Part shown: piece by piece, positions 4,112 through 35,789 of the stretch
Numbering within the stretch: the first letter of the stretch is position 1
How the letters are laid out: each line of letters starts with the position of its first letter
NCBI GenBank assembly: GCA_964372955.1
Contig: CAYJTC010000003.1
Location: 1 to 40,892, forward strand
From: an uncultured Planctomycetia bacterium
GTDB taxonomy: Bacteria; Omnitrophota; Gorgyraeia; 1-14-0-20-64-10
Direction of reading: 5' to 3'
Length of the DNA stretch: 40,892 nt
Position numbers and translations under genes: made by a program
The notes under the pieces: generated by a model
What the model was told of the DNA's origin: nothing
Seen by the model: only the letters and a program-made list of their open reading frames with translations
Database searches by the model: none

Positions 4112-4153
4112 TTCACCCTTCACCCTTCACCCTTCACCCTTTATCCTCCACCT
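4112..4153. repeat. Heptanucleotide tandem array H1: (TTCACCC)x4 plus 2 degenerate units
   Basis: Read directly: ttcaccc x4 (4112-4139), then tttatcc and tccacct. It spans the ctaD stop (4134-4136) and its last codons, and lies 2 nt downstream (+ strand coordinates) of the ctaA-ctaB start codon. Confidence 0.9.
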
Positions 4154-5867
4154 TCCCCGGTTCTTCCGTCTGCATCTGCCAATCCCGCGCTCTTCCGGGA
4201 ACCGAATACTCGTACGGCCCGCGATGGACCACCGGTGTCTCGGAGAAATTCCCATGGGGCGGCGGGGAAGGGGTCTCCCATTCCAGGGTGGTGGCCTCCC
4301 ACGGATTTTCTCCGGCCTTCTTGCCTCGGAACAGGCTCCAGAAAAAGTTGACCGCGAACAGAACCTGGGTAGCCATCAGGCAGAAGGCGGCCACACTCAT
4401 CATCCGGTTAAGGCCCGCAAACTGGGTCAAGCCCGCGTACTGGGTGTAGTCGTAGATCCGGCGGGGCATCCCTCCTAACCCTAAGTTGAACATCGGAAAC
4501 ATGACGGCGTTGAAGAACAGGAAGGTCAGCCAGAAATGGACCTTTCCCAGCCGCTCGTTCAAGCTGCGGCCGAACATCTTGGGGAACCAGAAGGTGATCC
4601 CGGCGAAAGCGCCGAACAGAGACCCTCCGAACAGGACGTAATGAATATGCCCCACCACGAAATAGGTGTCGTGAAAATACATGTCCACCGGAGTGGAGGC
4701 CAAATAGATGCCGGTCAAACCTCCGATGATAAACATCGAGATGAAGCCTAAAGCGTGCAGCATCGGAGTGGTCAGCCGGATCGAGCCGCGCCAGAGGGTG
4801 CCCAGCCAGCTGAACACCTTGACGCCGGTGGGCACCGCCACCGCCATCGTGGAGACCATGAAGGTAGTGCCCAGGGCCGGGTTCATGCCGCTTTGGAACA
4901 TGTGATGCGCCCAGACCAGGAACCCGACCGCTCCGATCCCCACCGCCGAGTAGGCGATCGCGTGATAGCCGAAGATCGGCTTCCGGCAGAAGGTGGGCAG
5001 GATATCAGAGACGAATCCCATCGCCGGCAGGATCATGATGTAGACCGCCGGGTGGGAATAGAACCAGAACAGGTGCTGCCACAGAAGAGGCTGGCCCCCG
5101 GCGTGGGGCAGGAGGCTGCCGTCCACGATCATGCCGGCCGGCAGAAAGAAGCTAGTACCGGCCACCCGGTCCAGCAGCAGCAGGATCAGTGCCGCGGCCA
5201 GAACCGGGGTGGCCAGCAGGGTCAGAACCGCGGTGGTGAACAGCGCCCAGATCGAGATCGGCAGGCGGTGGAAAGTCATTCCCGGTGCCCGGTGGTTGAT
5301 GATGGTAGCGATGTAGTTCACCGCCCCCAAGATGGAGGAGAACCCCAGCACCACGATCCCGGCGGCCCAGAGGGTCTGGCCGGCTCCCATCGTGGCCGTC
5401 GTCCCGCTTAAAGGAGGATAAGCGGTCCAGCCGGATGCCGCCGCCCCCCCCTCCACGAAGAAGCCGGCTAAGACGGTGGCCACCGCCACCGGAAACATCC
5501 AATAGGAAAGCATGTTCAGCCGAGGGAAGGCCATGTCCGGTGCCCCGACCTTCAAGGGGATCAGGTAATTCCCAAAGGCTCCAGCCAATAAGGGGATCAC
5601 CCCGAAAAAGATCATCACGGAGCCGTGCATGGTGAAGAGCATGTTGTAATACTCCGGCACCATCACCCCGCCGGGCATTCCGGCCGGAGCGATTTTTTCC
5701 ATGAAGGCCAGCGGCGCCCCCGGCCAGCCCAACTGCCAGCGCATCAGCATCGCCAGCAGGCCTCCGAAGAACATAAAGATCAGGGAGGAGAAGAGGAACT
5801 GGATCCCAATGATCTTGTGATCGGTTGAAAAGATATATTTTCGGATGAATCCCGGTCGGCTACTCAT
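4134..5867 (-). CDS. ctaD: Cytochrome c oxidase subunit I
   Basis: STDHKIIGIQFL..., WFYSHPAVYIMILP, GHHMF-type VWAHHMF, HDTYFVVGHIHYVL. Start moved to the ATG at 5867 (MSSRPGFIRKYIF), overlapping the subunit II stop by 8 nt. Confidence 0.95.
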   Translation of the reverse strand: MSSRPGFIRKYIFSTDHKIIGIQFLFSSLIFMFFGGLLAMLMRWQLGWPGAPLAFMEKIAPAGMPGGVMVPEYYNMLFTMHGSVMIFFGVIPLLAGAFGNYLIPLKVGAPDMAFPRLNMLSYWMFPVAVATVLAGFFVEGGAAASGWTAYPPLSGTTATMGAGQTLWAAGIVVLGFSSILGAVNYIATIINHRAPGMTFHRLPISIWALFTTAVLTLLATPVLAAALILLLLDRVAGTSFFLPAGMIVDGSLLPHAGGQPLLWQHLFWFYSHPAVYIMILPAMGFVSDILPTFCRKPIFGYHAIAYSAVGIGAVGFLVWAHHMFQSGMNPALGTTFMVSTMAVAVPTGVKVFSWLGTLWRGSIRLTTPMLHALGFISMFIIGGLTGIYLASTPVDMYFHDTYFVVGHIHYVLFGGSLFGAFAGITFWFPKMFGRSLNERLGKVHFWLTFLFFNAVMFPMFNLGLGGMPRRIYDYTQYAGLTQFAGLNRMMSVAAFCLMATQVLFAVNFFWSLFRGKKAGENPWEATTLEWETPSPPPHGNFSETPVVHRGPYEYSVPGRARDWQMQTEEPGKVEDKG

Positions 5868-6519
5868 TCGCTTTGGTCTCCGCAAGCCACAGGTTGAACG
5901 CCTCCCGCGGCTCGGTAGTGACGAAGCCGCGCATCCGGTAATGGCCCAGCCCGCACAGCTCGGCGCACCGGATCTCATACGAACCGGCTTTTGTCGGCTG
6001 GACCCAGATTTCGGTGGGCAGGCCCGGCACCGCGTCCTGCTTGATCCGGAACTCCGCCACGAACAGGCTGTGGATCACATCCTTGGATCGGAGCTTCAGA
6101 AGGGCCGGCTCCCCGACGGGAAGGTGGAGCTGATTGAGGGTAGTCACGTCGTCGGGGGTCTCAAAGAGGCCGTCCGGGCCCGGGTACCGGATGTTCCAAG
6201 CGAACTGCTCGGCCAGCACCTCCACGGGGGCCCACTCCGCGCCAGGAGGCTGAATCGGTCGAATCTCCCGCCAGAGCTTCTGCGAAGCGACCGTCAACCC
6301 TAATAGAATAAGGGCCGGCACGATCGTCCAGATCACCTCCAAGAGAGTGTTCCCATGCACGTAATGGGCTTTGCGGCCGGCGGAAGCCCGGTATTTCAGG
6401 ATGAACAGCAGAAGCGCCCCCTGCACCAGGAAGAAGAAGAACCCGGTGATGGCCGTGATCGCCCAAAAAATCCGGTCGATCTGAGGGGCGACGCTGGAGG
6501 CGCTTTCCGGCAAAAACAT
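5860..6519 (-). CDS. ctaC: Cytochrome c oxidase subunit II (CuA domain, no fused cytochrome c)
   Basis: Two N-terminal TM helices. CuA ligands are in DVIHSLFV...CAELCGLGHYRM. Confidence 0.9.
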   Translation of the reverse strand: MFLPESASSVAPQIDRIFWAITAITGFFFFLVQGALLLFILKYRASAGRKAHYVHGNTLLEVIWTIVPALILLGLTVASQKLWREIRPIQPPGAEWAPVEVLAEQFAWNIRYPGPDGLFETPDDVTTLNQLHLPVGEPALLKLRSKDVIHSLFVAEFRIKQDAVPGLPTEIWVQPTKAGSYEIRCAELCGLGHYRMRGFVTTEPREAFNLWLAETKANE

Positions 6520-6543
6520 CCTGTTGAGAGTTGCCCCTAGAGG

Positions 6544-7344
6544 TTACTTCTTGAAGCTGAAGGTGATCTGCTTCGTTTCGCCGTCGGACACCGTGACCTT
6601 CTGGCTCTGCGTGCCCAGCTTCTCATGCCAGGCCTCCACCGTATAGTCGCCGGAGGGCAGCCCGGAGAGGGTGAAGGAGCCATCCTCGCCGGACACCCCG
6701 AAGTAAGGATGATCCAGCACCACCGCGTAAGCAGCCATCCAGGGATGGACGTTGCACTTAAACGGCACCGGAGCCTCCGGCTTATCGAAGGTCTTGACCG
6801 TCTTCATTCCTTTGATCGGCTGGGCGATGTTGAACTTCTTGTTGAGCTTCGGCTGGGCGTTGATGTTATGCAGGGTGGAGTCGCTGTTCATGATCTCCAG
6901 CGGTTGGCCCACCTGGATGCCGAAGACGTGCGGTTTGTACAGACAGCCTTTCTGATTCAGGACCACCGGAGTTTTGGAGGCGGGGACAGATCCGGGAGCG
7001 ATCCCCTCCTTGATATAGACCACCGCGTTTTGCAGCGCCCCGCCGTTGACGACCAGATTCTCGACCAGGACAGGGTCTTTGTGCTGTTGCTGGCAGACCG
7101 GATCGGCCGCCATCTGGACCTTCTCCCGGGCCGGAGCGGCTCCGTCAAAAGTCACCTTGCCGCTGAGGGTCGCGGAGCCGCCGGAAACCGCTTTGGCTTC
7201 GCCGGCGGTTCCAGCTCCAAAAGCGGTCATGAGTCGTGAGTCTTGAGTTGTGAGTAGAAGAACGAGGGCTGTCATTGTCATTGCGAGGGTACGAAGTACC
7301 CGAAGCAATCTCTTTCCTGACGCCTGACGCTTGACGCTGAACAT
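6544..7344 (-). CDS. Exported cupredoxin-like (type-1 copper) protein with a C-terminal carboxypeptidase-regulatory-like beta-sandwich
   Basis: Candidate T1Cu ligands are TLHN...KCNVHPWM (His, Cys-x2-His-x2-Met). The tail FTLSGLPSGDYTVEAWHEKLG is typical of CarboxypepD_reg-like folds. A strong SD (AAGGGGG) lies 5 nt upstream of the ATG at 7344. N-terminal residues 1-38 are encoded by repeat element H2. Confidence 0.65.
   Translation of the reverse strand: MFSVKRQASGKRLLRVLRTLAMTMTALVLLLTTQDSRLMTAFGAGTAGEAKAVSGGSATLSGKVTFDGAAPAREKVQMAADPVCQQQHKDPVLVENLVVNGGALQNAVVYIKEGIAPGSVPASKTPVVLNQKGCLYKPHVFGIQVGQPLEIMNSDSTLHNINAQPKLNKKFNIAQPIKGMKTVKTFDKPEAPVPFKCNVHPWMAAYAVVLDHPYFGVSGEDGSFTLSGLPSGDYTVEAWHEKLGTQSQKVTVSDGETKQITFSFKK
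7231..7341. repeat. Heptamer-array hairpin element H2
   Basis: Left arm: GAGTCGT GAGTCTT GAGTTGT GAGTAGA (7231-7258). Core includes GAAGAACGA (7257-7265), GTCATT x2, and the hairpin ATTGC-GA-GGGTAC-GAA-GTACCC-GAA-GCAAT (7280-7309). Right arm: CTGACGC CTGACGC TTGACGC (7317-7337). Confidence 0.85.
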
Positions 7345-7357
7345 CGTTTCCCCCTTT

Positions 7358-8818
7358 TTATTTTAAAACAAGATCCACCCAATTCGAGGTGGCCCGGTGG
7401 CGGCCCTTTTCTCCATTGCCTCCGTCCCAAACGGCCGCGGCGAACAGAATCGGTTTGCCCGGCGCCAGATTCGCCCCGCCTGAGGCGGGAGATTTCAGGG
7501 ATCGTTGGAGGGTCAGCGCCCAGGCCCCTTCCGAATAGACGGCGGCCGTTTCCAGCGCAAGACCGGCTTCTTCCCCGTCTTCCAGGCCTTCGATTTCTCG
7601 CGCGAACGCCTCTTGGGCTTCGGACTGGGCGGCCGACCAGTAGCAGACGTCCAGCGCCGGAACCTCCGGAGCGGCCGGCCAAGCCCTCAGAGAGCCGACT
7701 TGGAACTTCTGGCGCCGGTCCGGCAGAAAGAAAAGGCCCGCCGCGTCGGGAGGCGTCTGTCTGTTTTCTGCTGAATCGTGCCAGATAAGCCGCAGGAGAA
7801 GGACCTCTTCATTATACACCGCCTGGATAGAAATCGACCCAACCGCGGTGGGCAGCAGCGCCCCCTGCTGATAGGCGCTGTTGCTTAACCTCAGGGTGGT
7901 ATAAGGGGCTTGGGCCCAGGCCGGGTCCTCCGGGCCGGAGGGCAGAGAGGCCGTTTTGATCGCCTCCACCTTCCGGTTCCAATGGGGGGTCTCCTGCAGG
8001 GAATGGACGTAGTAGGCCAGGGCCCAGGCATCCTCTTTGGAGGCGAAGGCCTCCGCGTAGGAAGGCATCGGGGTTCCGTCGATCCCGGTCATCATCCGGG
8101 CCACGATGTCGCTCGGGGAGGCGCCGCCCCGGTAGGTCCAGCCCTGGGTCAGGTCAGCCGACCGGATCGGGTTTCCCCAGTTGTCGGTCAGGGCAGCCGC
8201 CGATGGGCCGTTGGCCCGGCCCAAAGCTCCGTGGCAGGCACCGCACCCGAGCTGGGCGTAAAGTTCCTTCCCGCGGACCAGCGGGGCCTTCTCGGGGCCC
8301 GGGTCGGTCCCTAAATCGACCGGTTCCGAGGTTTGCTCCTGAAAAACAGGGCTCAAGCTCTTGATGTAAGCCACCAGGTGCCAGCGGGTCTCCTCCGGAA
8401 GACGCTGGAAATCCGGCATCCGGCTGCCGGGCAGGCCGGTGGAGAGGGTGTGGAACAGATCCCCGTCGGTGGGGGGGGTGCCGCTGGCGGTGGTCCGGAA
8501 CTTGAAAATTCCTTCCGCCAGATTGCGGGGTTTGGGAAACATCCGTTTGGCGTCGAACCCGTCCCCAGCACCGGTGGGCCCATGGCACCGGGCGCAGTTG
8601 GTTTCATAGGCCAGCTTCCCGGCGGCCAGGTCCGGCTCCGGCCGGTTCAGGGCCGGAGCCGAAGGAGCTTGGGGTGAGGTTTTCGCGGGCCGGTCGGCCG
8701 AGGCGGTCCCGGAAGGAACCAGGATCCAGCTCAGCAGGATCAGGACCCCCAGCCAGGTTCCCCATTGAGCCGCCTCTTTAAGCCATCCGGCCCGTTTGAA
8801 GGAGGAAAAAAGATTCAT
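7358..8818 (-). CDS. Membrane-anchored dihaem cytochrome c fused to an EB_dh-like (ethylbenzene-dehydrogenase gamma / DOMON-type) haem-binding domain
   Basis: Two CxxCH motifs (CARCHG, CGACHG). C-terminal LLLRLIWHD...FAAAVWDGGNGEKGRHRATSNWVDLVL resembles EB_dh domains. Start set at the ATG at 8818 (MNLFSSFKRAGWL..., TM anchor). Confidence 0.7.
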   Translation of the reverse strand: MNLFSSFKRAGWLKEAAQWGTWLGVLILLSWILVPSGTASADRPAKTSPQAPSAPALNRPEPDLAAGKLAYETNCARCHGPTGAGDGFDAKRMFPKPRNLAEGIFKFRTTASGTPPTDGDLFHTLSTGLPGSRMPDFQRLPEETRWHLVAYIKSLSPVFQEQTSEPVDLGTDPGPEKAPLVRGKELYAQLGCGACHGALGRANGPSAAALTDNWGNPIRSADLTQGWTYRGGASPSDIVARMMTGIDGTPMPSYAEAFASKEDAWALAYYVHSLQETPHWNRKVEAIKTASLPSGPEDPAWAQAPYTTLRLSNSAYQQGALLPTAVGSISIQAVYNEEVLLLRLIWHDSAENRQTPPDAAGLFFLPDRRQKFQVGSLRAWPAAPEVPALDVCYWSAAQSEAQEAFAREIEGLEDGEEAGLALETAAVYSEGAWALTLQRSLKSPASGGANLAPGKPILFAAAVWDGGNGEKGRHRATSNWVDLVLK

Positions 8819-8838
8819 GATTCTTATTTGTCGTCGTA

Positions 8839-9858: not shown

Positions 9859-9889
9859 CGTCCCCTCCGTTTGCTTTGGAAACAGTTTA

Positions 9890-14808: not shown

Positions 14809-16146
14809 ATGAAAACAGCAAACGAATCGACCCCTCTGCGCAGGGCGCTGGGGGTCTGGGACGCCACGGCGCTGGTGGTCGGATGCGTGATCGGGGCCGG
14901 GATCTTCCGGACCGCCGCCTCGGTGGCGGCCCACCTGCACACGCCCGGCTTGGTGATGGGGGTGTGGCTGGCCGGCGGGGCGATCTCCTTCTGCGGGGCC
15001 CTCTGCTACGCGGAGCTGGGGGCCGCCTATCCTAAGACCGGCGGGGATTACGTCTACCTGGACCGGGCCTATGGCCGGACCGTCGGGTTTTTATTCGGCT
15101 GGACCAAGCTGTTCACCGAGCGGATCGGAACGATCGCGATCTTGGGTTTTGTCTTCGCCGAATACCTGGGGTCCGTGTGGGGCTTGGGGCCGCTTGCGAC
15201 CAAAGGGTTGGCCGCCGGGGCGATCGCACTTTTAACCGGGGCCAATCTCATCGGGGTTCATGTCGGCAAGGGGGTGCAGAATCTCCTGACCGTTTTGAAG
15301 CTGGCGGCCCTGATGGGGATCATCGCCGCCGGCCTCTTAGCCGGCAAGGCTCAGCCGGAGTTGATCCGGAGCGCCTCCTTCGTCCCGCTGGATGGCAAGA
15401 CCCTTCCCTCCTTCGGGGTGGCCCTGGTGTTCGTGCTCTGGACTTACGGGGGCTGGACCGAGTCCTCCTACGTGGCCGAGGAGATTCGGGATCCTCATCG
15501 GGCCCTGCCCTGGTCGATCCTGCTGGGCTTGAGTGTGGTGACCGGGCTGTATCTGGCGGTCAACTGGGTCTACCTGCTCTACATTCCGTTGGACCAGATG
15601 CAGGGCCGGCCCTTAGTGGCGGCGGAAGTCATGAAGGCCGCTGTGGGACCGGCGGGAGCGACGGTCACTTCCTTGATGGTGGCCTGCTCCGCCTTCGGGG
15701 CCTTGAACGGCTATATCCTGACCAGCGGGCGGATCCTCCTGGCTGTCGGCCGGGACCACCCCCTCTTCTCCCGGCTGGCGGCGGTCCATCCCCGGTTCGC
15801 CACGCCGGCGACCGCTCTGGTGTTCAACGCGACCGCCGCGGCGCTGCTTCTTGGGTTCGGCACCTTTGATCAGATCGTGACCTACTCCACCGTCGTCATC
15901 TCCCTCTTCTTCGCGATGGCCGCCTTCAGCGTCATCCTGCTTCGGATCCGGGATCCCCACCGGGCGCGGCCCTACCGGGTCTGGGGCTATCCGGTGACCC
16001 CGCTCCTTTTCGTAGCCGCGATGGTCTGGTTCATCGCGGATGTGACCTGGATGCAGCCCAAGGAGGCGCTGTGGGGGTTCGGGCTGCTGGCGCTGGGCCT
16101 GCCGGTGTACGGCTGGTCCCGAATGCTGGAGCGCAGGGGGGTGTAG
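14809..16146 (+). CDS. APC-superfamily amino acid permease
   Basis: 12-TM pattern: VVGCVIGAGIFRTA...CYAELGAAYPKTGGDYVY...TYGGWTES. Confidence 0.85.
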   Translation: MKTANESTPLRRALGVWDATALVVGCVIGAGIFRTAASVAAHLHTPGLVMGVWLAGGAISFCGALCYAELGAAYPKTGGDYVYLDRAYGRTVGFLFGWTKLFTERIGTIAILGFVFAEYLGSVWGLGPLATKGLAAGAIALLTGANLIGVHVGKGVQNLLTVLKLAALMGIIAAGLLAGKAQPELIRSASFVPLDGKTLPSFGVALVFVLWTYGGWTESSYVAEEIRDPHRALPWSILLGLSVVTGLYLAVNWVYLLYIPLDQMQGRPLVAAEVMKAAVGPAGATVTSLMVACSAFGALNGYILTSGRILLAVGRDHPLFSRLAAVHPRFATPATALVFNATAAALLLGFGTFDQIVTYSTVVISLFFAMAAFSVILLRIRDPHRARPYRVWGYPVTPLLFVAAMVWFIADVTWMQPKEALWGFGLLALGLPVYGWSRMLERRGV

Positions 16147-16282
16147 GGTGAAGGGTGGAAGGTGGAGGGGAAGAACGATTTTTTGGGGGGTTGCTTTATT
16201 GGTTTTCCCTCCACCCTTGACCCTTGACCCTTCACCCTTCACCCTTCACCCTTCACCCTTCACCCTCGACCCTTCACCTTCA
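16147..16282. repeat. Heptamer-array hairpin element H3
   Basis: Left arm: GGTGAAG GGTGGAA GGTGGAG (16147-16167). Core begins GAAGAACGA (16170-16178). Right arm: about 11 units of CCCT(C/T)(C/G/T)A, mainly CCCTTCA (16207-16282). Same heptamer as H1. Confidence 0.9.
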
Positions 16283-21737: not shown

Positions 21738-21856
21738 CACGAGTCATGCAAAACCGTTCGTGCTGATCCTGAGCAAAGTCGAAGGGTCGAAGCACGAACA
21801 TCGCCGTTCACCCTTCGACAAGCTCAGGGTGAACGGGTCAGTTTGCATGAGTCGTG
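21738..21856 (+). mobile_element. MITE copy A (119 bp)
   Basis: TIRs are CACGAGTCATGCAA...TTGCATGAGTCGTG. Flanking direct repeat GTATAA at 21732-21737 and 21857-21862. The left copy contains the aminotransferase stop codon. Confidence 0.85.
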
Positions 21857-23545: not shown

Positions 23546-23578
23546 GCCCATGATCGGCAAAACCGACATGGGCTTTTT
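23546..23578 (+). terminator. Rho-independent terminator
   Basis: GCCCATG-a-TCGG-caaaa-CCGA-CATGGGC followed by TTTTT. Confidence 0.7.
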
Positions 23579-23668
23579 GTTGCACAGAGGGCGCAGAAGG
23601 GAAAAGAGAGCACACAGCATGGGCTTTTTTGTTGCACAGAGGGCACGGAAGGGAAAGAGAGCACACAG
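23567..23668 (+). repeat. Tandem direct repeat, 2 x 51 bp
   Basis: Unit 1 (23567-23617) and unit 2 (23618-23668) differ at only a few positions (T5 vs T6; GCGCAGAAGGGAAAAG vs GCACGGAAGGGAAAG). Unit 1 begins with the descending arm of the terminator. Confidence 0.9.
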
Positions 23669-23683: not shown

Positions 23684-23902
23684 ATGACACCTGTTCAAGC
23701 CAATGCGAGGCACCCCACCTTGACCTTACTCAGGGTGAAGCGGGATCCGGTGAAGCTGACGGCACTGCTCTACCTGCGGGAAGCGCTCCAGCGCCAGCGG
23801 TACGAGCTCTGCCCCGAATTGATCGGGGTGGCCAAAGAGTTCGGAGCGCAGGAGCGGGAGATTGAAGAACTGCTGGAAGATGCCCGACGTCTGCCCCGTT
23901 AA
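23684..23902 (+). CDS. Hypothetical 72-aa protein
   Basis: Strong SD GAAGGAGGGG 5 nt upstream. Helical, charged sequence. No family recognised. Confidence 0.5.
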   Translation: MTPVQANARHPTLTLLRVKRDPVKLTALLYLREALQRQRYELCPELIGVAKEFGAQEREIEELLEDARRLPR

Positions 23903-24852: not shown

Positions 24853-24980
24853 CACGACTCATGCAAAACCGTTCGTGCTGATCCTGAGCCCTTCGGCAAG
24901 GCCGTTCCCCTTCGACAAGCTCAGGGTGAACGGCCTTGCCGAAGGGCTCAGGGTGAACGGCTCAGATTGCATGACTCGTG
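24853..24980 (+). mobile_element. MITE copy B (128 bp, rearranged core)
   Basis: TIRs are CACGACTCATGCAA...TTGCATGACTCGTG. 7-bp direct repeat ATCCATA at 24846-24852 and 24981-24987. The core is a long hairpin CTGAGCCCTTCGGCAAGGCCGTTC...GAACGGCCTTGCCGAAGGGCTCAG. Confidence 0.85.
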
Positions 24981-29715: not shown

Positions 29716-29724
29716 GGTGAGACC

Positions 29725-30105
29725 ATGAAGACGGTTCTGATCATCGATGACGAGCCCGACGTCAGGGCCCTGTTGAACGTGCGGCTGACCGCCAACGGGA
29801 TGAAGATCCTGGAAGCCCCCGACGGGCCCTCCGGCATCGCCCTGGCCAAAGAACAGCGACCGGATTTGATCCTGCTGGACATCATGATGCCGACGATGGA
29901 CGGGGTGGAGACGTTTCACGCCCTCAAGAAAGATCCCCAAACTCAGAAGATCCCGGTCATCTTTTTGACCGTCCTGGCCCAGAACATCGAGCTGACCAAG
30001 CACAACCTGGGGGTGGGGGACAGCTACGCGATCTTAAGCAAGCCCTATCATCCGCAGGAGCTGATCGGAGAGATCCGCCGGGCGCTGGGAGAAGAGTCCC
30101 CATGA
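29725..30105 (+). CDS. Receiver-only response regulator RR4
   Basis: VLIIDDEPD...DLILLDIMMPTMDG...VIFLTV...ILSKPY. Confidence 0.9.
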   Translation: MKTVLIIDDEPDVRALLNVRLTANGMKILEAPDGPSGIALAKEQRPDLILLDIMMPTMDGVETFHALKKDPQTQKIPVIFLTVLAQNIELTKHNLGVGDSYAILSKPYHPQELIGEIRRALGEESP

Positions 30106-31757
30106 CGGAAGCGGTCCGGCGTCCTGAAGAGGAGCTGGTCGAAGAAGGGCTGATCACCGCCGAGCAGCTGCGGCAGGCTCAGGCGGAGGCGGTCCGGTCC
30201 GGACAGACGGTCCGGCAGGCGCTGGTCCGGTTGAAATGGATCGATCCGGGCACCCTGGCCCAATGGCTGAGCCGCTTCTTGGGGATCCCGCGGGTGGAGC
30301 TGGGCTCCTACCTGGTCGACGCCCAGGTACTGGAGGCCCTGCCGGAAGCGCTGGCCCGGAAGCACCGGGTGATCCCCTTGTTCAAGCTGGGCCAGACCCT
30401 GACGGTGGCCACCGCGGATCCGATGAACCTGGCGGCCTTGGATGAGCTGCGCCTGCGCACCCACATAACCATCGACCCGGTGGTGGCCACGGAGGAGGAG
30501 ATCCTCCAGGCGATCGAAGAGTATTACGGGGCCAAGGGGCATCTCGAGGAGCTGGTCACCGATCTGACCCAGGAGAAGCTGGGCCTGAAGGCCGGCCAGG
30601 CCCCCGAGCTCAAGCGTCTTCAGGGGCTGGTCACCGAGCCGCCGGTGATTCGGCTGGTGAACCTGCTCTTAAGCGACGCGATCCGGGCCCGCGCTTCCGA
30701 CATCCATTTGGAGCCGGAGAAGGAGATCTTCCGGGTCCGGTTCCGGGTGGACGGGATCCTGAGGGAGGCGACCACCTTGCCTAAACACTTAGAGCCGGCG
30801 GTGGTTTCCCGGGTCAAGATCCTGGCCAATCTCGACATCGCGGAACGGCGCAGGCCCCAGGATGGGCGGTTCCGGGTGGCGATGGAGGGGCACGAGGTGG
30901 ACCTGCGGATCTCGGTGATGCCCTGCATCGATGGAGAGGCGGTGGTCTTAAGACTGCTGGACACTCAGGGCCTGAGGGTGGGGTTGGAGGAGCTGGGGAT
31001 GGAGCCGGAGCTGTTTTCCAGGTATCAGGCCCTCTTGAAGCGCAGCTGGGGGATTCTCCTGGTGACCGGCCCCACCGGCTCTGGCAAGACCACGACCCTG
31101 TACGCTTCCCTGGCCGGCCTGAACGCGGTGGAGCAAAACATCGTCACCCTTGAAGATCCGGTCGAATACCGGTTGGACGGCATTCGGCAGATCCCAATCA
31201 ACCCGGCGGTGGGGCTGACCTTCGCCACGGGACTGCGCTCTATCTTACGGCAGGATCCCAACGTGATCATGGTCGGAGAGATCCGGGACCAGGAGACTGC
31301 CGAAATGGCTATTCAGGCGGCCTTGACCGGGCACCTGGTCTTTTCCACCCTACACACCAACGACGCCCCCACGGCGATCACCCGCCTGCTGGACATGGGG
31401 ATCGAGCCGTTCCTGGTGGCCTCCAGTTTGATCGGGGTGGCGGCTCAGCGGCTGGTCCGGGTGATCTGCCCGGACTGCAAAGAGCCGGATCGGTCGGCGC
31501 CTGACGCCGGTTTTTTTAAAGGAAGGGGCTGCCGCAGGTGCGAGATGACCGGTTTCCGGGGCCGGATCGGGATCTTCGAGCTGATGGGTTTGGATGAGCA
31601 GATCAACCGTTTGACCCTGGCGAAAGGATCGGCGGCGCAGATCAAGGAGGCCGCGATCCAAAAAGGGATGCGGACCCTGCGGGAAGACGGGCTGGCTAAG
31701 GCGGCTTCCGGCGTCACCACGATCGATGAGGTGATGCGGGTGATCCAAGAACAGTGA
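30102..31757 (+). CDS. pilB: GspE/PilB-family type IV filament assembly ATPase with an N-terminal T2SSE_N (MshEN-like) domain
   Basis: Walker A GPTGSGKTTTLY, Walker B/Asp box DPNVIMVGEIRD, His box GHLVFSTLHTND, tetracysteine CPDC...CRRC. ATGA overlap with RR4. Confidence 0.9.
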   Translation: MTEAVRRPEEELVEEGLITAEQLRQAQAEAVRSGQTVRQALVRLKWIDPGTLAQWLSRFLGIPRVELGSYLVDAQVLEALPEALARKHRVIPLFKLGQTLTVATADPMNLAALDELRLRTHITIDPVVATEEEILQAIEEYYGAKGHLEELVTDLTQEKLGLKAGQAPELKRLQGLVTEPPVIRLVNLLLSDAIRARASDIHLEPEKEIFRVRFRVDGILREATTLPKHLEPAVVSRVKILANLDIAERRRPQDGRFRVAMEGHEVDLRISVMPCIDGEAVVLRLLDTQGLRVGLEELGMEPELFSRYQALLKRSWGILLVTGPTGSGKTTTLYASLAGLNAVEQNIVTLEDPVEYRLDGIRQIPINPAVGLTFATGLRSILRQDPNVIMVGEIRDQETAEMAIQAALTGHLVFSTLHTNDAPTAITRLLDMGIEPFLVASSLIGVAAQRLVRVICPDCKEPDRSAPDAGFFKGRGCRRCEMTGFRGRIGIFELMGLDEQINRLTLAKGSAAQIKEAAIQKGMRTLREDGLAKAASGVTTIDEVMRVIQEQ

Positions 31758-31760
31758 ATC

Positions 31761-31878
31761 CACGACTCATGCAAAACCGTTCGTGCTGATCCTGAGCAAA
31801 GTCGAAGGGTCGAAGCACGAAATGCCTCTTCACCCTTCGACAGGCTCAGGGTGAACGGCTCAGATTGCATGACTCGTG
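31761..31878 (+). mobile_element. MITE copy C (118 bp)
   Basis: Same TIRs as copy B. Direct repeat TGAATC at 31755-31760 (contains the pilB stop TGA) and at 31879-31884. It is inserted in the first heptamer of the H4 left arm. Confidence 0.85.
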
Positions 31879-31884
31879 TGAATC

Positions 31885-32098
31885 GTGAATAGTGGATAGT
31901 GAATCGTTATGAAAGTGCAGAGCTACAAAGAGCTGGAGGTTTGGAAGAAGGGGGTTGACATTGTGGGCCGTCGAAGGCATATTTCGGACGCTGAACTTGT
32001 CAAGCTAAACGAACATCTGGATCATGAAAGCCGAATGCTGATGAATTTGATCAAGCGGTTGCGGAGATGACGATCCACGATTCACGATCCACGATGGA
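31885..32098 (+). repeat. Heptamer-array hairpin element H4, enclosing a short ORF
   Basis: Left arm: GTGAATA GTGGATA GTGAATC (31885-31905), plus a MITE-split GTGAATC. Right arm: CGATCCA CGATTCA CGATCCA CGATGGA (32071-32098). The right arm is the reverse complement of the same TG(A/G)ATCG family. Confidence 0.85.
31909..32070 (+). pseudogene. Truncated four-helix-bundle protein gene (23S rRNA intervening-sequence protein / Avd-like family), 53 codons
   Basis: MKVQSYKELEVWKKGVDIV... matches the usual N-terminus (SYKDL.VWQKA). ...ESRMLMNLIKRLRR matches the usual C-terminus. The middle ~60-70 aa of a normal ~120-aa member are missing. Too short for the ORF track. Confidence 0.6.
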
Positions 32099-32108
32099 CA
32101 GTCTTTAG

Positions 32109-33335
32109 ATGCCCGCGTTCGCCTACCAGGCCAGAGATCAACAGGGGCGCCTCGTTCGGGGAATCTTGGAAGCGAAAAACCCCGTTTCTTTGGCGGAGCA
32201 TCTGCGGCGGATGGGCTACCTGGTCAGCCGGATGGATCCGGTGTCGGTCTCCGCTCAGAAGATTTTGAATCTTCGATGGGGCCGGGCGGTCAGTCCGGAA
32301 GGGCTTCTTTTGGCGGTGATCCAGCTGGCTAACTTAGTCGAGGCGGGCGTCCCGTTGATCGCCAGCCTCCAGTCGGTCGCTTCGCAGGCGGGGAGTCCCT
32401 CTTTACGGGAGGCGCTGGAAGCGGTTTGCCGGGAGGTGGAGGGGGGAACGCCGTTTTCTCAGGCCTTAAGCCATCAGCCCCCTGTTTTTCCCAAGCTGAT
32501 GGTCAGTCTGGTTTCCGTGGGAGAGGCCAGCGGCCATCTCGATGCGGTCCTGGCCCGGTTCGCCAGCTTTCTGGAGAAGGACTTGGCGTTGACCCGGGCG
32601 GTCCGGGGGGCTCTGCTTTATCCCGCTCTTTTGTTGACGGCGGCGGCCGGGCTGGTCCTGTTCGTTGTCACCTTCGTGGTCCCGCAGTTCGCCTCCCTGT
32701 TCGCCCGGGCCGGGATCGGGCTGCCTACACCGACTCGGATCCTGCAGGCGATCGGGGAAGCGATCCGGACCCGATGGTTGCTTTTGCTGGGATTAGTCGG
32801 GGTGGCGCTGGGGGGCATCGGGTGGGCTCTGAGAATTCCCGCGGTCCGTTTCCGGATCGATCAGGGGCTCCTGAAACTTCCGGTGATAGGCCCTTCCATC
32901 CATCAGGCGGTGGTGGCCCGGTTCGCCCGAACGCTGGCCACCCTGGTCTCCAGTGGTGTTCCAATCGTCGGCGCCCTTGAAACGGCCGAAGGAGTGGTGG
33001 AGAATCAGGTGATCGTTCAGGAGCTGCGGCGGGTCCGGACCGCCGTGGTGCAGGGGGAACGGATCGCCGCCACCTTGGCGGTCAGCGGGGTCTTTCATCC
33101 GGATGCCATTCAGATGATCCGGGTGGGGGAAGAGGCCGGCCGGCTGGACGCGATGCTGGAGAAGATTGCCGACTTCTATGAGCTCCAGGTCAACTATCGA
33201 TTGAGGCAGATGACCACCCTGCTGGAGCCGATTCTGCTGGTGGCCATGGGCGGGGTGGTGGCGTTCATCATGGCCTCTTTACTGCTTCCGATGTTTGACA
33301 TGGTGAAGGTTCTTCAGCGAGGAGGATTTCGGTGA
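32109..33335 (+). CDS. pilC: GspF/PilC-family platform protein
   Basis: Two T2SSF repeats: SLVSVGEASGHLDAVL... and MIRVGEEAGRLDAML... with the LLEPILLVAMGGVV TM pattern. Confidence 0.9.
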   Translation: MPAFAYQARDQQGRLVRGILEAKNPVSLAEHLRRMGYLVSRMDPVSVSAQKILNLRWGRAVSPEGLLLAVIQLANLVEAGVPLIASLQSVASQAGSPSLREALEAVCREVEGGTPFSQALSHQPPVFPKLMVSLVSVGEASGHLDAVLARFASFLEKDLALTRAVRGALLYPALLLTAAAGLVLFVVTFVVPQFASLFARAGIGLPTPTRILQAIGEAIRTRWLLLLGLVGVALGGIGWALRIPAVRFRIDQGLLKLPVIGPSIHQAVVARFARTLATLVSSGVPIVGALETAEGVVENQVIVQELRRVRTAVVQGERIAATLAVSGVFHPDAIQMIRVGEEAGRLDAMLEKIADFYELQVNYRLRQMTTLLEPILLVAMGGVVAFIMASLLLPMFDMVKVLQRGGFR

Positions 33336-33796
33336 AAAGGAGAAAGGGTTTCACCTTGGTGGAACTAATCATTGTGATCGCCGTCATCGCGATTCTTTTG
33401 GGGATCGCCCTGCCGCGCCTTCGGGGCATGATCGACGAAGGCAACACCGCCAAGGCAGCGGCGGAACTGCGGGCGCTTCAGGCGGCGGTGGAGTCCTATT
33501 ACATCCATAACTCCAAGACCTATCCGGCCGACGGCAGCGCCACCTGGCAATCGGCCCTGACTGCCGCCAGCACCAGACCCAAGCTGATCGGCACTGCCTT
33601 GAATGACCCGTTCGCCATCTCGGCGACCCAGTACCAGTATGACAAGTCGGCCAACGGCCTTTACTACATCATCTGGTCGGTCGGCGTGGACAACACCGCC
33701 GACATCACCGGCATCGACAACACCGGCGCTTTGACCGGCACCGCGGACGACGACATCTATGTTTCCAACGGCATCTCCGGCACTGGAGGCTTTTAG
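33332..33796 (+). CDS. GspG-like major pseudopilin / type IV pilin (prepilin-type N-terminus)
   Basis: KGFTLVELIIVIAVIAILLGIALP cleavage/methylation motif with Glu+5. GspG-like LQAAVESYY...YP...DPF...YYIIWSVGVDN...DDDIY. GTG start overlaps the pilC stop. Confidence 0.85.
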   Translation: MKRRKGFTLVELIIVIAVIAILLGIALPRLRGMIDEGNTAKAAAELRALQAAVESYYIHNSKTYPADGSATWQSALTAASTRPKLIGTALNDPFAISATQYQYDKSANGLYYIIWSVGVDNTADITGIDNTGALTGTADDDIYVSNGISGTGGF

Positions 33797-33822
33797 AGTC
33801 GGCTCTAAAAAAGCCGGCTTTT
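33797..33822 (+). terminator. Possible (leaky) terminator after the major pilin gene
   Basis: AGTCGGCT (33797-33804) pairs with AGCCGGCT (33812-33819) with one G-U pair, a 7-nt loop, then TTT. Confidence 0.45.
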
Positions 33823-33891
33823 GGGTTAAACTTCGCCAACACTCGCCATTCCTCTTTGTTTTTAGCCAATAGTGTCAAAGTACCCCCTCCA

Positions 33892-33921
33892 TTGACAAGC
33901 TTTCCTGCCGCCAGCCATACT
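33892..33921 (+). promoter_or_regulatory. Promoter P2 (TTGACA-18 nt-CATACT), giving a near-leaderless HK2 mRNA
   Basis: TTGACA at 33892-33897 and CATACT at 33916-33921. The ATG at 33932 has no SD. TTTCCTGCC (33901-33909) is shared with P1. Confidence 0.45.
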
Positions 33922-33931
33922 TTGAATTGGA

Positions 33932-35284
33932 ATGAGAGAGAAATCGTACTTGACTGTGGAAGAGGTGGCGGATCGCTTCGGAGTCAATCCGACGACGGTC
34001 TACCGGATGGTCCAGACCGGCAAGCTGCCCGGCTTCAAGCTGGGAGGCCAATGGCGTTTCAGCGAAGAGGCGCTGGAGAAGTGGGTGGGTGACCGGGGGA
34101 ACGTTCAGGAGCAGTTGGAGGCCAAGGGCCGCTTGCTGGAGGAGGCCCATCGGCGCCTTCAGGAGCTCTCCCGGCTGAAGGATGAGTTCGTGGCCAGTGT
34201 CAACCATGAGCTCCGGACCCCCTTGACAGTCGTCAAGGAGGGAGTCAGTCTCCTGACCGATGAAGTTTTAGGCCCGCTCAATGAGAAGCAGAAGGACTTT
34301 CTCGGGACGGTCCATCAAAACATCCAACGCTTGGAAGCGCTCATCTGGGATCTGCTGGATCTCTCGAAGATCGAGGCTGGGCGGCTGCCTCTGTTTAAGA
34401 CCCGGGTGCCGTTGCGGGACCTGCTGGAGAAGGCGCTTTCAAGCTACAAGAAGATCGCCAAGAACCGGACCCTTCAGTTGAAAATCGAAGAGGTCCCGGA
34501 CGTCTTCGCGGATCCTAACCGAGTCCTTCAGGTGATCGGCAACCTCTTTTCCAACGCGGTGAAGTTTACGCGGGAAGATGGAAGGATCACGCTGGCGGCC
34601 CAAAAGTCCAATGGGATGGTGGCGCTCTCCGTCCAGGATGACGGCCTGGGGATCGCCCCGGAGGATTTGCCTAAACTTTTCCAGAAGTTTTCTCAATTGG
34701 GAAAAGAGATGACAGTCCGCCGGGGGACCGGCTTGGGGCTGGCTCTCTGCAAACAGCTGGTGGAGATGCATCAAGGAACCATCGGAGTCCATTCAGCGCC
34801 CGGAAAGGGATCCACCTTTACCTTTACCCTGCCGGTCTATTCCCCCCGGTTCGCTTTGGAAGAGACCTTTGGAAGGCTGCTGAAGTCGGCCGGGTCGGAC
34901 AAGGCAGTCAGTCTGCTGACGATCGACTGCAGCGCTTTTCTAGAAGAGAAAGAGATCGGGTTGCCCGACTCGATGGCTCGGGTCCCAAAGGTGGCTGAGT
35001 TTGTGCAGGCGTATGTTCATCAAGGGGACGCGGTCTTGAGCGTAGAGCCCCGCTGGGTGGTGATTCTGGCTCCCGTGGACTCCGAGGGAGCGCAAGCCCT
35101 GCGAAATCGGCTGGAAGAGCTGTTGAACGACTGGCGCGAGCTGGTTCGGGAAGAGAAGCCGCATCAGCGGCTCTCGCTAGGGATAGCGACCTATCCGGAA
35201 GATGGCCCGGAGGCGCTGGCACTTTTTGCCAAGGCGACAGGAGCTTCTTTAAATAGCTTTTCATTCCTCACCGCAATCCGCTAA
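33932..35284 (+). CDS. Histidine kinase HK2 with an N-terminal excisionase-type HTH: HTH_17, coiled coil, HisKA, HATPase_c, degenerate GGDEF-like domain
   Basis: LTVEEVADRFGVNPTTVYRMVQTGKLPGFKLGGQWRFSEEALEKWV. H-box NHELRTPL. NLFSNAVKFT, DDGLGI, GTGLGLALC. C-terminal ...VVILAPVDSEGAQALRNRLEELL...RLSLGIATYPEDGPEALALFAKA. Confidence 0.85.
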   Translation: MREKSYLTVEEVADRFGVNPTTVYRMVQTGKLPGFKLGGQWRFSEEALEKWVGDRGNVQEQLEAKGRLLEEAHRRLQELSRLKDEFVASVNHELRTPLTVVKEGVSLLTDEVLGPLNEKQKDFLGTVHQNIQRLEALIWDLLDLSKIEAGRLPLFKTRVPLRDLLEKALSSYKKIAKNRTLQLKIEEVPDVFADPNRVLQVIGNLFSNAVKFTREDGRITLAAQKSNGMVALSVQDDGLGIAPEDLPKLFQKFSQLGKEMTVRRGTGLGLALCKQLVEMHQGTIGVHSAPGKGSTFTFTLPVYSPRFALEETFGRLLKSAGSDKAVSLLTIDCSAFLEEKEIGLPDSMARVPKVAEFVQAYVHQGDAVLSVEPRWVVILAPVDSEGAQALRNRLEELLNDWRELVREEKPHQRLSLGIATYPEDGPEALALFAKATGASLNSFSFLTAIR

Positions 35285-35295
35285 TCTATAGATCC

Positions 35296-35718
35296 ATGGT
35301 CCCAAAGCGGTCCTCCGGGTTCACCCCATTAGACAGGCAAAGCCGCCGTCTAACGGGGTTCACCTTAATCGAGGTGATGATCGCGATCCTGCTTATTGTC
35401 GGGGCGGTGGCCTCCGCCGCCTTCATGATGGGACGGGGGATGTTCGCGGCCACCGACACCGAAACTCTTCAACAGGGGATCGCCCTGGCCCAGGAGAAGA
35501 TGGAAAATCTTCGGGGCACCGCTTTCGCCTCCATCGCCAGCGAATCCCGCGCTCCAATTGGCGGTTGGACCGGTTTCGAGCGGCAGGTCGCGGTTTCCCA
35601 ACCGGCCGGCACCAACAGCGACTTCAAGCAGGTGGGGGTGACCGTCTACTGGAGCACCGTGGAAGGAGAACTCTCCACCTCGCTGACCACCTACGTCGCC
35701 AATGTCATCAATAACTAA
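35296..35718 (+). CDS. Minor (pseudo)pilin, GspI/PilV-like
   Basis: TGFTLIEVMIAILLIVGAV prepilin motif after an unusually long ~21-aa leader. 140 aa. Confidence 0.75.
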   Translation: MVPKRSSGFTPLDRQSRRLTGFTLIEVMIAILLIVGAVASAAFMMGRGMFAATDTETLQQGIALAQEKMENLRGTAFASIASESRAPIGGWTGFERQVAVSQPAGTNSDFKQVGVTVYWSTVEGELSTSLTTYVANVINN

Positions 35719-35724
35719 CAAACC

Positions 35725-35789
35725 GGTTGAAAGTTTAAAGTTTAAAGTCTCAAATTTTCGGTTTAACTTCCAACCTTCAACCTTAAACT
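35725..35789. repeat. Heptamer-array hairpin element H5 (AT-rich)
   Basis: Left arm: GGTTGAA AGTTTAA AGTTTAA AGTCTCA (35725-35752). 9-nt loop. Right arm: TTTAACT TCCAACC TTCAACC TTAAACT (35762-35789). Confidence 0.85.

Follow-up and report, generated by a model that had tools for sequence, protein, structure and literature searches.

Heptanucleotide arrays inserted at gene junctions of a Candidatus Omnitrophota genome: candidate arms of a cassette carrying a four-helix-bundle gene

Eight tandem arrays with a period of seven nucleotides were detected by Tandem Repeats Finder in the window (the whole stretch of DNA analysed, 40,892 nucleotides): 4112-4152, 7226-7255, 7316-7337, 16139-16173, 16207-16282, 31878-31904, 32070-32095 and 35726-35748. 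They belong to five sites (H1 to H5), each between adjacent genes of the same strand; the array reaches or includes the stop codon of the first gene and/or lies directly against the start codon of the second. An autocorrelation scan gave five period-7 runs, against zero or one run for each other period from 4 to 15, and a mean of 0.13 (maximum 1) after dinucleotide-preserving shuffling (n=100). The five array sites described in an earlier note on this DNA are thus real, and all five lie at stop/start junctions, as had been claimed. At least four unrelated heptamers are used as units within 32 kb, and in the window the array sites showed no correlation with gene function.

Two arms in inverted orientation were found at three of the sites. 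In H3, the 5' arm (16139-16173, plus strand, five GGGTGAA-like units) contains the TAG stop (16144-16146) of an amino-acid permease gene, and the last base of the 3' arm (16204-16282, plus strand, eleven CCCTTCA units) directly precedes the ATG (16283) of a PCMT gene; both were recovered by Tandem Repeats Finder, inverted-repeat search and RNA folding, with 82-87% complementarity over 31-39 nt and a fold of -75.6 kcal/mol (z = -6.1). In H5, the AAAGTTT-type 5' arm (35725-35748, plus strand; Tandem Repeats Finder and inverted-repeat search) begins 7 nt past the stop of a pseudopilin gene (35718), the AACTTNN-type 3' arm (35762-35795, plus strand; inverted-repeat search) lies 14 nt upstream of the next pseudopilin ATG (35810), and the arms (21-23 nt) are 78-81% complementary. 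The third inverted site, H4, is described below.

The earlier note had counted H2 as a fourth inverted site; this part of its observation did not hold. Array A, (GAGTNNT)x4 (7226-7255, plus strand), overlaps the ATG (7228-7230, minus strand) of a CarboxypepD_reg-domain gene, and array B, (CCTGACG)x3.5 (7316-7341, plus strand), lies 16 nt from the stop of a cytochrome c gene (7358); both were detected by Tandem Repeats Finder. Only 5 of the 7 unit positions (GAGTNNT vs. CTGACGC) can pair, the inverted-repeat search gave nothing for H2, and its folds were no better than those of shuffles (z-scores -0.2 and -1.0). The core holds a small nested hairpin (7277-7312, plus strand; GTCATTGCGAG-GGTAC-GAA-GTACC-CGAAGCAATCTC), whose frame, GTCATYSCGAG...GCRATCT / GAGGGATCT, also occurs with another inner stem at junctions in locus L006 and at the orthologous site in L163. 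H1 (4112-4152, minus strand; Tandem Repeats Finder and autocorrelation) is a solo 5' arm, (GGGTGAA)x4 plus degenerate units on the sense strand. The CoxI stop codon (4134-4136) falls within this arm, and 2 nt lie between its end and the ATG (4109) of a CtaA/CtaB fusion gene; as previously noted it has no opposite arm, and the inverted-repeat search found no partner. The 9-mer GAAGAACGA, reported before as common to H2 and H3, stands immediately on the 3' side of the left arm in both, after array A of H2 (7257-7265, plus strand) and, in H3, at the core-facing end of the 5' arm (16170-16178, plus strand), and is non-random, with three copies counted in the window against 0.38 expected.

H4 lies between a GspE-like and a GspF-like gene. 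The TGA stop of the former falls in the first unit of the 5' arm, GTGAATC (31754-31760, plus strand); the remaining units (TGAATCG TGAATAG TGGATAG TGAATCG; 31879-31906, plus strand) end 2 nt before the ATG of a short open reading frame, ORF53 (31909-32070, plus strand). The TGA stop of ORF53 lies within the 3' arm (ACGATCC/ACGATTC x4; 32067-32098, plus strand), which is followed after 10 nt by the GspF-like ATG (32109). Both arrays were identified by Tandem Repeats Finder and inverted-repeat search; the arms are complementary at 76% over 34 nt or 87% over 23 nt, and the fold of the whole element reached only z = -1.55. A profile match identified ORF53 as an internally deleted gene of the four-helix-bundle (FHB) family: residues 4-17 align with FHB profile positions 2-15, and residues 25-52 with positions 89-116. 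The score (13.1 bits) exceeds the maximum of 2000 shuffles (11.6) and is weak, below every curated cut-off and with no Pfam hit; the only NCBIfam match was NF008911 (TIGR02436 subfamily), at the N-terminus. Judging from this alignment, the H4 core is the remnant of an FHB (PF05635/TIGR02436) gene, a point overlooked before and the key to the identity of the family.

A true MITE, which has TIRs and makes duplications of 6-7 bp, stands between the first unit of H4 and the other units of its 5' arm. It contrasts with the heptamer elements, for which neither target-site duplications nor a mobility enzyme were found. The location of this MITE copy inside the H4 left arm gives anecdotal support to the earlier suggestion that the arrays serve as insertion scaffolds.

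The orthologous junctions of H1-H5 (coxI/ctaAB, cytochrome c/CPD_reg, permease/PCMT, GspE/GspF and pseudopilins) were compared in the nearest Omnitrophota genomes, as had been proposed. They consist of overlaps or short spacers (0-22 nt in the closest relatives): an 8-nt overlap or 15-nt gap for coxI/ctaAB, a 4-nt overlap for permease/PCMT in L165, 3-20 nt in 6 of 7 relatives for GspE/GspF, and 15-35 nt for the pseudopilins. Arrays were absent from these relatives at all five junctions. Since the junctions of the closest relatives are short or overlapping and array-free, H1-H5 are recent insertions, specific to this lineage of Candidatus Omnitrophota and placed at gene junctions.

Heptamer arrays were also found beside FHB genes elsewhere. 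Among 80 unrelated metagenomic FHB loci, with 2702 windows of the same contigs as controls, 62 genes had an adjoining heptamer array, a number that rises to 70 when octamer arrays are included. Period-7 arrays were present upstream in 46 of 76 windows and downstream in 52 of 75 (61-69%), against 52 of the 2702 controls (1.9%), and no period other than 7 was enriched, apart from a small octamer class. The parts follow one another as in the window, from the stop of the preceding gene through the 5' arm, the leader, the FHB gene and the 3' arm to the start of the next gene, and the FHB stop codon is usually inside the 3' arm. Inverted repeats flank 50 of the 80 genes; in many of them at most one mismatch occurs over 18-34 nt, variable unit positions included. 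Unit sequences vary among loci (TCAGCNN, TAAGCNN and AAAGTNN are common) while the arms remain complementary, as in the orthologous cassettes L085 and L092, where they co-vary (CAGC/GCTG vs. CAGT/ACTG); 90% of the units in 5' arms contain AG, and 93% of those in 3' arms contain CT. The unit type of H2 array A recurs in the 5' arms of the L112 and L122 FHB cassettes, and that of the H5 5' arm in the arms of the cassette in L144. Carriers of an FHB gene with arrays include Nitrospirota, Bacteroidota and Chloroflexota. The idea of one family with a fixed architecture and a variable unit therefore extends to other phyla, with many units and complementary arms.

Gene-less inverted pairs are present in the same contigs, and such pairs also occupy one orthologous gspF junction across Rhodanobacteraceae, where the units differ and the arms are complementary. 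Gene-carrying cassettes have a purine-rich leader after the 5' arm (AGAAGA in Coxiella, GAAGAACCG in L088), and a gene-less pair in L086 has TGAAGAACAAACGG at the leader position; GAAGAACGA, shared by H2 and H3, fits such a leader.

On balance, and with modest confidence, we read the arrays as the arms of a widespread, small and selfish element of the intervening-sequence (IVS) type, a cassette that carries an FHB gene; most of the arrays would be relics without that gene. The complete cassette would comprise, after the upstream stop, a 5' arm of degenerate AG-containing tandem heptamers with more G than C, the purine-rich leader, the gene (S23p/Avd-like, PF05635; the 23S rRNA intervening-sequence family) and, before the downstream start, a 3' arm that is the CT-containing inverted complement and usually supplies the gene's stop codon. 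Such cassettes would have entered five tight operon junctions in this lineage: in H4 the gene persists with its internal deletion, in H3 and H5 the two arms remain and enclose a short core, H2 would be a pair that is degraded or composite and has another small hairpin inside it, and of H1 the 5' arm alone is left. FHB homology was undetectable in the cores of H2, H3 and H5 and in other gene-less pairs (all at most 2.3 bits), so that their descent from gene-carrying cassettes is something we infer.

The 23S rRNA IVSs of Leptospira and Coxiella burnetii resemble the proposed cassette: they are small insertions whose terminal inverted repeats form a long stem, and, as in H4, the sole ORF is PF05635/TIGR02436 and is subject to decay. 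In C. burnetii the S23p ORF is preceded by GACAGAT x3-4, variable in copy number between strains, and by an AG-rich motif, the 28-bp stem is cut by RNase III in vitro, and one strain has a 176-bp deletion in the ORF (Warrier et al. 2016, PMC4990558). Unlike these IVSs, which lie in helix 25 or 45, the window elements stand between protein-coding genes, both arms are tandem-heptamer arrays, and 4 of the 5 sites lack an ORF. A transcribed heptamer array is also known from the hmw1A 5'-UTR of Haemophilus influenzae, where (ATCTTTC)n forms one arm of an RNA hairpin processed by RNase III, and changes in repeat number need transcription, hairpin and RNase III (Rapun-Araiz et al. 2025, PMC12721329). 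The long hairpin and, presumably, RNase III processing are common to hmw1A and the proposed cassette, but hmw1A is a single phase-variable locus, not dispersed, with a G-rich non-repeat right arm and no FHB gene. The arms of the cassette may pair in the polycistronic transcript to form a 20-40 bp stem, a probable substrate of RNase III (a double-strand RNase); folding or processing of the stem would set the insert apart from the genes on either side and so make it tolerable, and tandem units would allow pairing in several registers and copy-number change by slippage. Arm mismatches showed no excess of G:U over A:C (43:34), which does not favour pairing in RNA over pairing in DNA.

A doubtful but substantial alternative is that the inverted hairpins are autonomous elements or host-made structures, FHB genes being later passengers and H1-H3 and H5 never having borne a gene. 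Gene-less pairs greatly outnumber gene-carrying ones, empty cores hold no gene remnants, and no second FHB gene was found in about 374 kb of flanks, though 52 control windows hold arrays. The Ca. Manganitrophus FHB gene lies between two complete hairpins, one on each side, which fits independent hairpin modules. Xanthomonas has about 186 arrays, with 70-75 convergent pairs per genome and 2-26 units per array, preferentially between co-directional ORFs and at most 50 bp from starts or stops; in Xanthomonas and Nostoc the arrays after a stop are G-rich on the sense strand, they are transcribed, and their positions are conserved while length and sequence vary between species (Rehm et al. 2015, PMC4692102). 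These GGGAATC and GGGGAYT arrays resemble the window elements as inverted tandem heptamers near stops and starts of co-directional ORFs; with heptamer pairs published for Xanthomonas, heptamers for the Coxiella IVS and a heptamer hairpin for H. influenzae, the form is, contrary to the earlier supposition, not undescribed. That study dealt with one unit family per genome, read as forming G-quadruplexes (G4), and made no link to FHB genes or IVSs, whereas the window has its several unrelated units, most unable to form G4; one of the Xanthomonas GGGAATC arrays lies directly beside XCC0516, whose FHB product is the protein in PDB entry 2GSC. Against autonomous hairpins, FHB genes have arrays next to them about 30 times as often as do the other genes on their contigs, the stop in the 3' arm and the leader after the 5' arm give the look of an integrated unit, arms and ORF arrive together in the 23S rRNA IVSs, and H4 represents gene decay in place. 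MITEs and REP/REPIN sequences are likewise small, non-coding, palindromic, intergenic and dispersed, and are sometimes, like the proposed relics, internal-deletion derivatives of a gene-carrying parent; copies of the heptamer elements, however, share architecture and not sequence, and no conserved terminal sequence, transposase or RAYT was found for them.

It is considerably less probable that the arms tune downstream initiation or re-initiation of translation, by SD-like and anti-SD-like sequences or a repeat-binding protein, as the earlier note and, for TAACTGA, MacGregor proposed. Only 0-14 nt lie between arrays and start codons, relatives have at these junctions an SD (GGAGG in L165, caggagg in L003) that the insertions displaced, and GGGTGAA units directly precede the ctaAB ATG; TAACTGA repeats of Beggiatoaceae likewise lie just upstream of starts (MacGregor 2015, PMC4679880). 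The SD-like character is nevertheless confined to the GGGTGAA-type unit; most types, such as TCAGCNN, TAAGCNN and AAAGTNN, are neither SD-like nor anti-SD-like. Close relatives with the same operons lack the arrays, so that these are not an ancestral regulatory feature, and gene function correlates with them neither in the window nor in Rehm et al. (PMC4692102). The earlier interpretation as a whole is supported in part. TAACTGA repeats occur in Beggiatoaceae, cyanobacteria and Bacteroidetes, and the patchy distribution of these and of the STRR of heterocystous cyanobacteria suggests horizontal spread (PMC4679880); STRRs are also reported inside the RNase P RNA gene (Vioque 1997). Like the window arrays they are dispersed intergenic heptamers, often just upstream of starts, but mainly direct arrays of one fixed unit, for which inverted pairs and a linked gene are unreported.

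A role as regulatory repeats that form G-quadruplexes, the proposal of Rehm et al. for GGGAATC and GGGGAYT arrays, is very improbable here: the GGGTGAA units of H1 and H3 provide four or more G3 tracts, and related GGGAATC arrays form G4 in vitro (Rehm et al. 2015, PMC4692102), but H2, H4, H5 and most FHB-flanking units have no G tracts, and G4 potential therefore cannot define the family. Equally hard to credit are neutral slippage repeats or piled-up 7-bp footprints of MITE target-site duplications, lacking structure or function, since, although heptamer repeats are over-represented in bacteria (Rehm et al. 2015, PMC4692102) and the window MITE makes 6-7 bp duplications with one copy inside an array, target-site duplications are direct repeats, while these arms are inverted complements that mirror even variable positions, with a near-universal AG/CT polarity and a strong association with one gene family.

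A general link between heptamer arrays and FHB genes was not found in the literature. The cassette model would join two old puzzles: the heptamer repeats of bacteria and the FHB protein family.

At each of the coordinates at which the earlier note had placed an array, a period-7 array was detected by Tandem Repeats Finder (sites H1 to H5, each with its own unit), and the observation was real and mostly accurate. An autocorrelation scan of the window gave five runs of period 7 and no more than one at any other period from 4 to 15, and 100 dinucleotide-preserving shuffles of the window gave a mean of 0.13 period-7 runs (maximum 1). The arrays were tandem 7-nt units, present in at least 2-3 copies and intergenic, as in heptamer SSRs. 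By Pfam annotation of the ORFs on either side, all five sites lay between adjacent genes on the same strand: coxI and a ctaA/ctaB fusion at H1, a cytochrome c gene and a CarboxypepD_reg-domain gene at H2, an amino-acid permease gene and PCMT at H3, gspE-like and gspF-like genes at H4, and two pseudopilin genes at H5. The arrays were in contact with coding sequence: the first unit contained the upstream stop codon at H1, H3 and H4, and the last base of the H3 3' arm immediately preceded an ATG.

Inverted arms had been claimed for four sites. They were true inverted pairs at H3, H4 and H5, where the arrays converge between two ORFs of the same direction and lie near their stop and start codons; the claim did not hold for H2, whose arms were 5/7 complementary and folded no better than shuffles, and H1 had a single arm, as had been noted. 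The H3 fold reached -75.6 kcal/mol (z = -6.1), and that of H4 was unremarkable. Three copies of GAAGAACGA were present in the window (0.38 expected), one directly 3' of the left arm in H2 and one in the same place in H3. Intrinsic terminators were rejected: a scan of positions 4000-8000 found nothing resembling a terminator at H1 or H2, and a start codon rather than a T run came after the 3' arms of H3, H4 and H5. Footprints of target-site duplications were ruled out by the orientation of the arms, which are inverted and mirror each other.

The nearest GspF loci among GTDB representatives belonged to Candidatus Omnitrophota MAGs (54-70% identity), and CoxI homologues at 88-90% identity were likewise annotated as Omnitrophica. 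No heptamer arrays were found over 10-21 kb of syntenic sequence in these relatives, and their junctions were tight: 3-20 nt between GspE and GspF in 6 of 7 relatives (351 nt in the window), 15-35 nt between the pseudopilin genes (91 nt in the window), a gap of 15 nt or else an overlap of 8 nt between coxI and ctaAB, 13-22 nt between the cytochrome c and CarboxypepD_reg genes in two relatives, and a 4-nt overlap between the permease gene and PCMT in one relative. Because the orthologous junctions are tight and free of arrays, all five sites are, on this comparison of sequences, lineage-specific insertions. The Shine-Dalgarno sequences retained at the junctions of the relatives were displaced by the insertions in the window. 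Across H4, two further assemblies of this strain (Logan ERR3478686 and ERR4904391; loci L161 and L162) had the same unit number, being 100% identical to window positions 31852-32130. Both contigs terminated within the MITE that lies in the left arm of H4, suggesting that this repeat fragments short-read assemblies.

The MITE family had three copies in the window (21738-21856, 24853-24980 and 31761-31878; 118-128 bp), with terminal inverted repeats CACGA(C/G)TCATGCAAAAC...G(A/T)TTGCATGA(C/G)TCGTG and flanking direct duplications of 6-7 bp (GTATAA, ATCCATA and TGAATC). These copies have the characters of MITEs. For the heptamer sites a MITE was rejected: no terminal sequence is common to them, no direct duplication flanks them, and the unit changes from site to site. 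All three MITE copies lay immediately 3' of stop codons, one of them within the left arm of H4; the stem of their interior hairpin was the heptamer TTCACCC/GGGTGAA, i.e. the H1/H3 unit, and the copy at 24853 contained a period-14 array (24919-24965).

Other repeats were also observed. A small hairpin with the conserved frame GTCATYSCGAG-(variable stem-loop)-GCRATCT / GAGGGATCT, the inner stem of which co-varies, occurred at gene junctions in three Omnitrophota genomes (window 7277-7312; L006 13040-13085; L163 about 8405-8440, this last site being orthologous to H2) and had no match in Rfam. The sister Omnitrophota MAG JACQCH01 carried at its gene junctions, GspE/GspF included, a palindromic element of about 150-190 nt (L001 9818-10000; L163 13395-13570 and 14165-14320) with ends ACCCCGCCCCTCCGGAGT...ACTCCGGAGGGGCGGGGT, which begins at a stop codon and occupies the niche of the heptamer elements with an unrelated sequence. 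A 52-bp unit present twice at 23567-23668 (92% identity), in a 700-nt non-coding stretch 5' of a small ORF (ATG near 23685), was unrelated to the heptamer elements.

The four-helix-bundle gene family (FHB; PF05635/TIGR02436, S23p/Avd-like) was associated with heptamer arrays in 80 loci retrieved from metagenomes. Within 120 nt of the FHB gene the density of period-7 arrays was about 15 times that elsewhere, other periods being essentially absent, and a detector allowing two variable positions per unit gave heptamer arrays in 46 of 76 upstream and 52 of 75 downstream windows vs. 52 of 2702 control windows. Of the 80 genes, 62 had a heptamer arm on at least one side (70 when a small octamer class was counted), and 50 were flanked by inverted repeats, many with 0-1 mismatch over 18-34 nt and with the variable unit positions mirrored too. 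Direct reading of these cassettes gave the layout seen in the window: upstream stop, 5' arm, purine-rich leader (20-90 nt), FHB ORF, 3' arm and downstream start, the FHB stop lying usually inside the 3' arm and the downstream start codon no more than about 20 nt beyond. The arm units were diverse (TCAGCNN, TAAGCNN, TGAGTNN, AAAGTNN, AGGGTTN and others), with AG present in 90% of the units of 5' arms and CT in 93% of those of 3' arms (about one third expected), a rule also obeyed by the arms of the window, part of H4 excepted. Two orthologous cassettes (L085 and L092) had arms that had changed together (CAGC/GCTG vs. CAGT/ACTG).

The named carriers included Ca. Manganitrophus, a Bacteroidetes MAG and a Roseiflexaceae MAG, and the contigs of the FHB loci were also rich in gene-less inverted pairs. 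At one orthologous gspF junction in Rhodanobacteraceae, gene-less pairs had a different unit in each genome and arms that remained complementary. With an imperfect rule for the G-rich strand, GAAGAAC had no match beside the 5' arms in the 80 loci, AGAAGA/AAGAAG showed a 2-3.4-fold excess only, and leader examples in L086 and L088 were spotted by eye. Crude ORF maps placed the downstream neighbour of the FHB gene on the same strand in 45 cases and the opposite strand in 16 (33 and 30 for the upstream neighbour), counts too crude to use.

Several variants were observed among these loci. At a minority of FHB genes (L119, L128, L137, L153, L154, L156 and L160), inverted arrays of 8-nt units (e.g. 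CAAGGGTT and AAAGGCAC) replaced the 7-nt ones. The cores at the gspF downstream junction of Rhodanobacteraceae and Dokdonella (L046, L050, L057, L061, L068 and L074) shared CTACAAT(C), which resembles a -10 promoter element, and the arm units differed in each genome. The FHB gene of Ca. Manganitrophus (L167 1391-1972), between clpV-like and vgrG genes, had a TCAGC/GCTGA hairpin, complete with two arms and loop, on either side and not one arm on each. In the Roseiflexaceae MAG (L169 1882-2074), a tandem duplication of about 64 nt, with the last FHB codons and the 3' arm in each copy, left the entire end of the FHB gene present three times.

The core of H4 held a 53-codon ORF (ORF53; 31909-32070, forward strand), the left arm stopping 2 nt 5' of its ATG and its TGA lying within the first unit of the right arm. 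ORF53 matched nothing but itself among 5.8 billion proteins, had no Pfam match even at E = 10 and no tblastn match in plasmids; its PDB matches, to designed TIM barrels, were spurious. Its sole NCBIfam match was to the N-terminus of NF008911, found in this analysis to be a subfamily of TIGR02436 (E = 0.047; 14.2 bits, below the curated cut-off of 137). A local HMM built from 120 real FHB family members gave ORF53 13.1 bits (maximum 11.6 among 2000 shuffles), the match falling into two colinear pieces, N-terminal and C-terminal, each at the corresponding end of the profile (positions 2-15 and 89-116). ORF53 is 53 aa long vs. about 119 aa in FHB members, and the pattern is the one expected after the internal loss of about 70 codons. 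It supports ORF53 as a putative deletion remnant of an FHB gene rather than a functional member, an identity assigned from the local profile test, since the searches of the protein, Pfam, PDB and plasmid databases did not identify it. No FHB remnants were found in 23 other cores (H2, H3, H5 and 20 gene-less pairs; 2.3 bits or less in every frame), and no intact FHB gene was present in the window or in 80 GspF loci.

The architecture, which the earlier note had not known as a described one, had already been reported from Xanthomonas, and the element is hence not new as a category. Rehm et al. 2015 (PMC4692102) described 70-75 convergent pairs of GGGAATC arrays, transcribed and favouring co-directional ORFs near stops and starts, left their function open and proposed a G-quadruplex role. 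One array in their supplementary table lies 6 nt from bccP and overlaps the start of XCC0516, a link unremarked in that paper. XCC0516 is the FHB protein of PDB 2GSC. According to Warrier et al. 2016 (PMC4990558), the 23S rRNA intervening sequence (IVS) of Coxiella holds an S23p ORF, an AGAAGA motif and 3-4 tandem GACAGAT heptamers in strain-variable number; RNase III cuts its 28-bp terminal stem, and its ORF has a 176-bp deletion in one strain. In the H. influenzae hmw 5'-UTR, RNase III processes a heptamer-array hairpin, and change in repeat number needs transcription, the hairpin and RNase III (Rapun-Araiz et al. 2025, PMC12721329). MacGregor 2015 (PMC4679880) described TAACTGA arrays immediately 5' of start codons and offered the speculation that a mobile protein binds the repeats.

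IVSs sit in helix 25 or 45 of the 23S rRNA gene, whereas H1-H5 sit between protein-coding genes; no rRNA or other Rfam family was found in the window at gathering thresholds, and a tRNA scan gave no tRNA. Terminal inverted repeats giving a long stem, as in IVSs, were present at H3, H4 and H5 but not at H2, and H1 had one arm. The S23p/FHB ORF, a feature of some IVSs, was present in the window at H4 only, as the putative remnant. Excision from the transcript by RNase III has been reported for Coxiella and other IVSs, and RNase III processing for the H. influenzae hmw hairpin.

The best-supported reading of the window is five IVS-type cassettes built around an FHB gene, in differing states of decay: H4 would be a gene-deleted cassette, also interrupted by a MITE; H3 and H5 gene-less pairs; H2 a pair that is either degraded or composite, its core enclosing another small hairpin; and H1 a solo 5' arm, now directly before ctaAB. 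By the precedents of Coxiella and H. influenzae, base-pairing of the arms within the polycistronic transcript would create a substrate for RNase III that isolates the insertion. Arm mismatches carried no RNA-level signature, G:U and A:C on the sense strand being 43:34, without bias. The main rival, a less probable one, holds the hairpins to be autonomous and the FHB gene a passenger; it draws support from the complete hairpins on either side of the Manganitrophus FHB gene and from the empty cores without FHB remnants. As general explanations, a Shine-Dalgarno/anti-Shine-Dalgarno role fails because most units are not Shine-Dalgarno-like, and a G-quadruplex fails because most units have no G tracts (GGG, as in the Xanthomonas class, is present in the H1 and H3 units only and absent from H2, H4 and H5).

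Beyond the decayed-cassette reading of the window lies a wider and rather unlikely one: cyanobacterial STRR, Xanthomonas GGGAATC, Beggiatoa TAACTGA and Geobacter heptamer elements and the Omnitrophota arrays might all be arms or relics of one unrecognised, widespread mobile FHB cassette, whose protein acts on the repeats and of which the 23S IVS is a special case, a cassette that would have landed in rRNA. The FHB (S23p/Avd-like) protein would be the only gene product of the cassette; as a pentamer, it would recognise the repeats (NNAGNNN) in the form of RNA or of single-stranded DNA, and would serve to mobilise, to maintain or to expand them. A possible route would be an RNA intermediate excised by RNase III and a reverse transcriptase acting in trans, a partnership modelled on Avd in diversity-generating retroelements.

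Heptamer repeats are the sole over-represented class of long simple bacterial repeats, their origin and function unexplained since 1990, and the dispersed arrays have been described piecemeal over 35 years; the FHB/S23p family is large and structurally solved, with a function known only in diversity-generating retroelements. The link between FHB genes and arrays holds across 80 independent loci, and full-text searches of the literature found no general statement of it. Heptamer elements split overlapping or tightly coupled genes of essential operons (cox, type II secretion), remove the downstream Shine-Dalgarno sequence and extend ORF calls, and repeats of this kind may break short-read assemblies. 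The window adds a new phylum, several unrelated units in one operon-dense stretch, and in H4 a putative intermediate tying the arrays to the FHB/IVS family. Culturable carriers exist (Xanthomonas, Nostoc and Coxiella). If the arrays are indeed arms of FHB cassettes, the protein would become a candidate for binding or mobilising the repeats, and the repeats its candidate nucleic-acid target.
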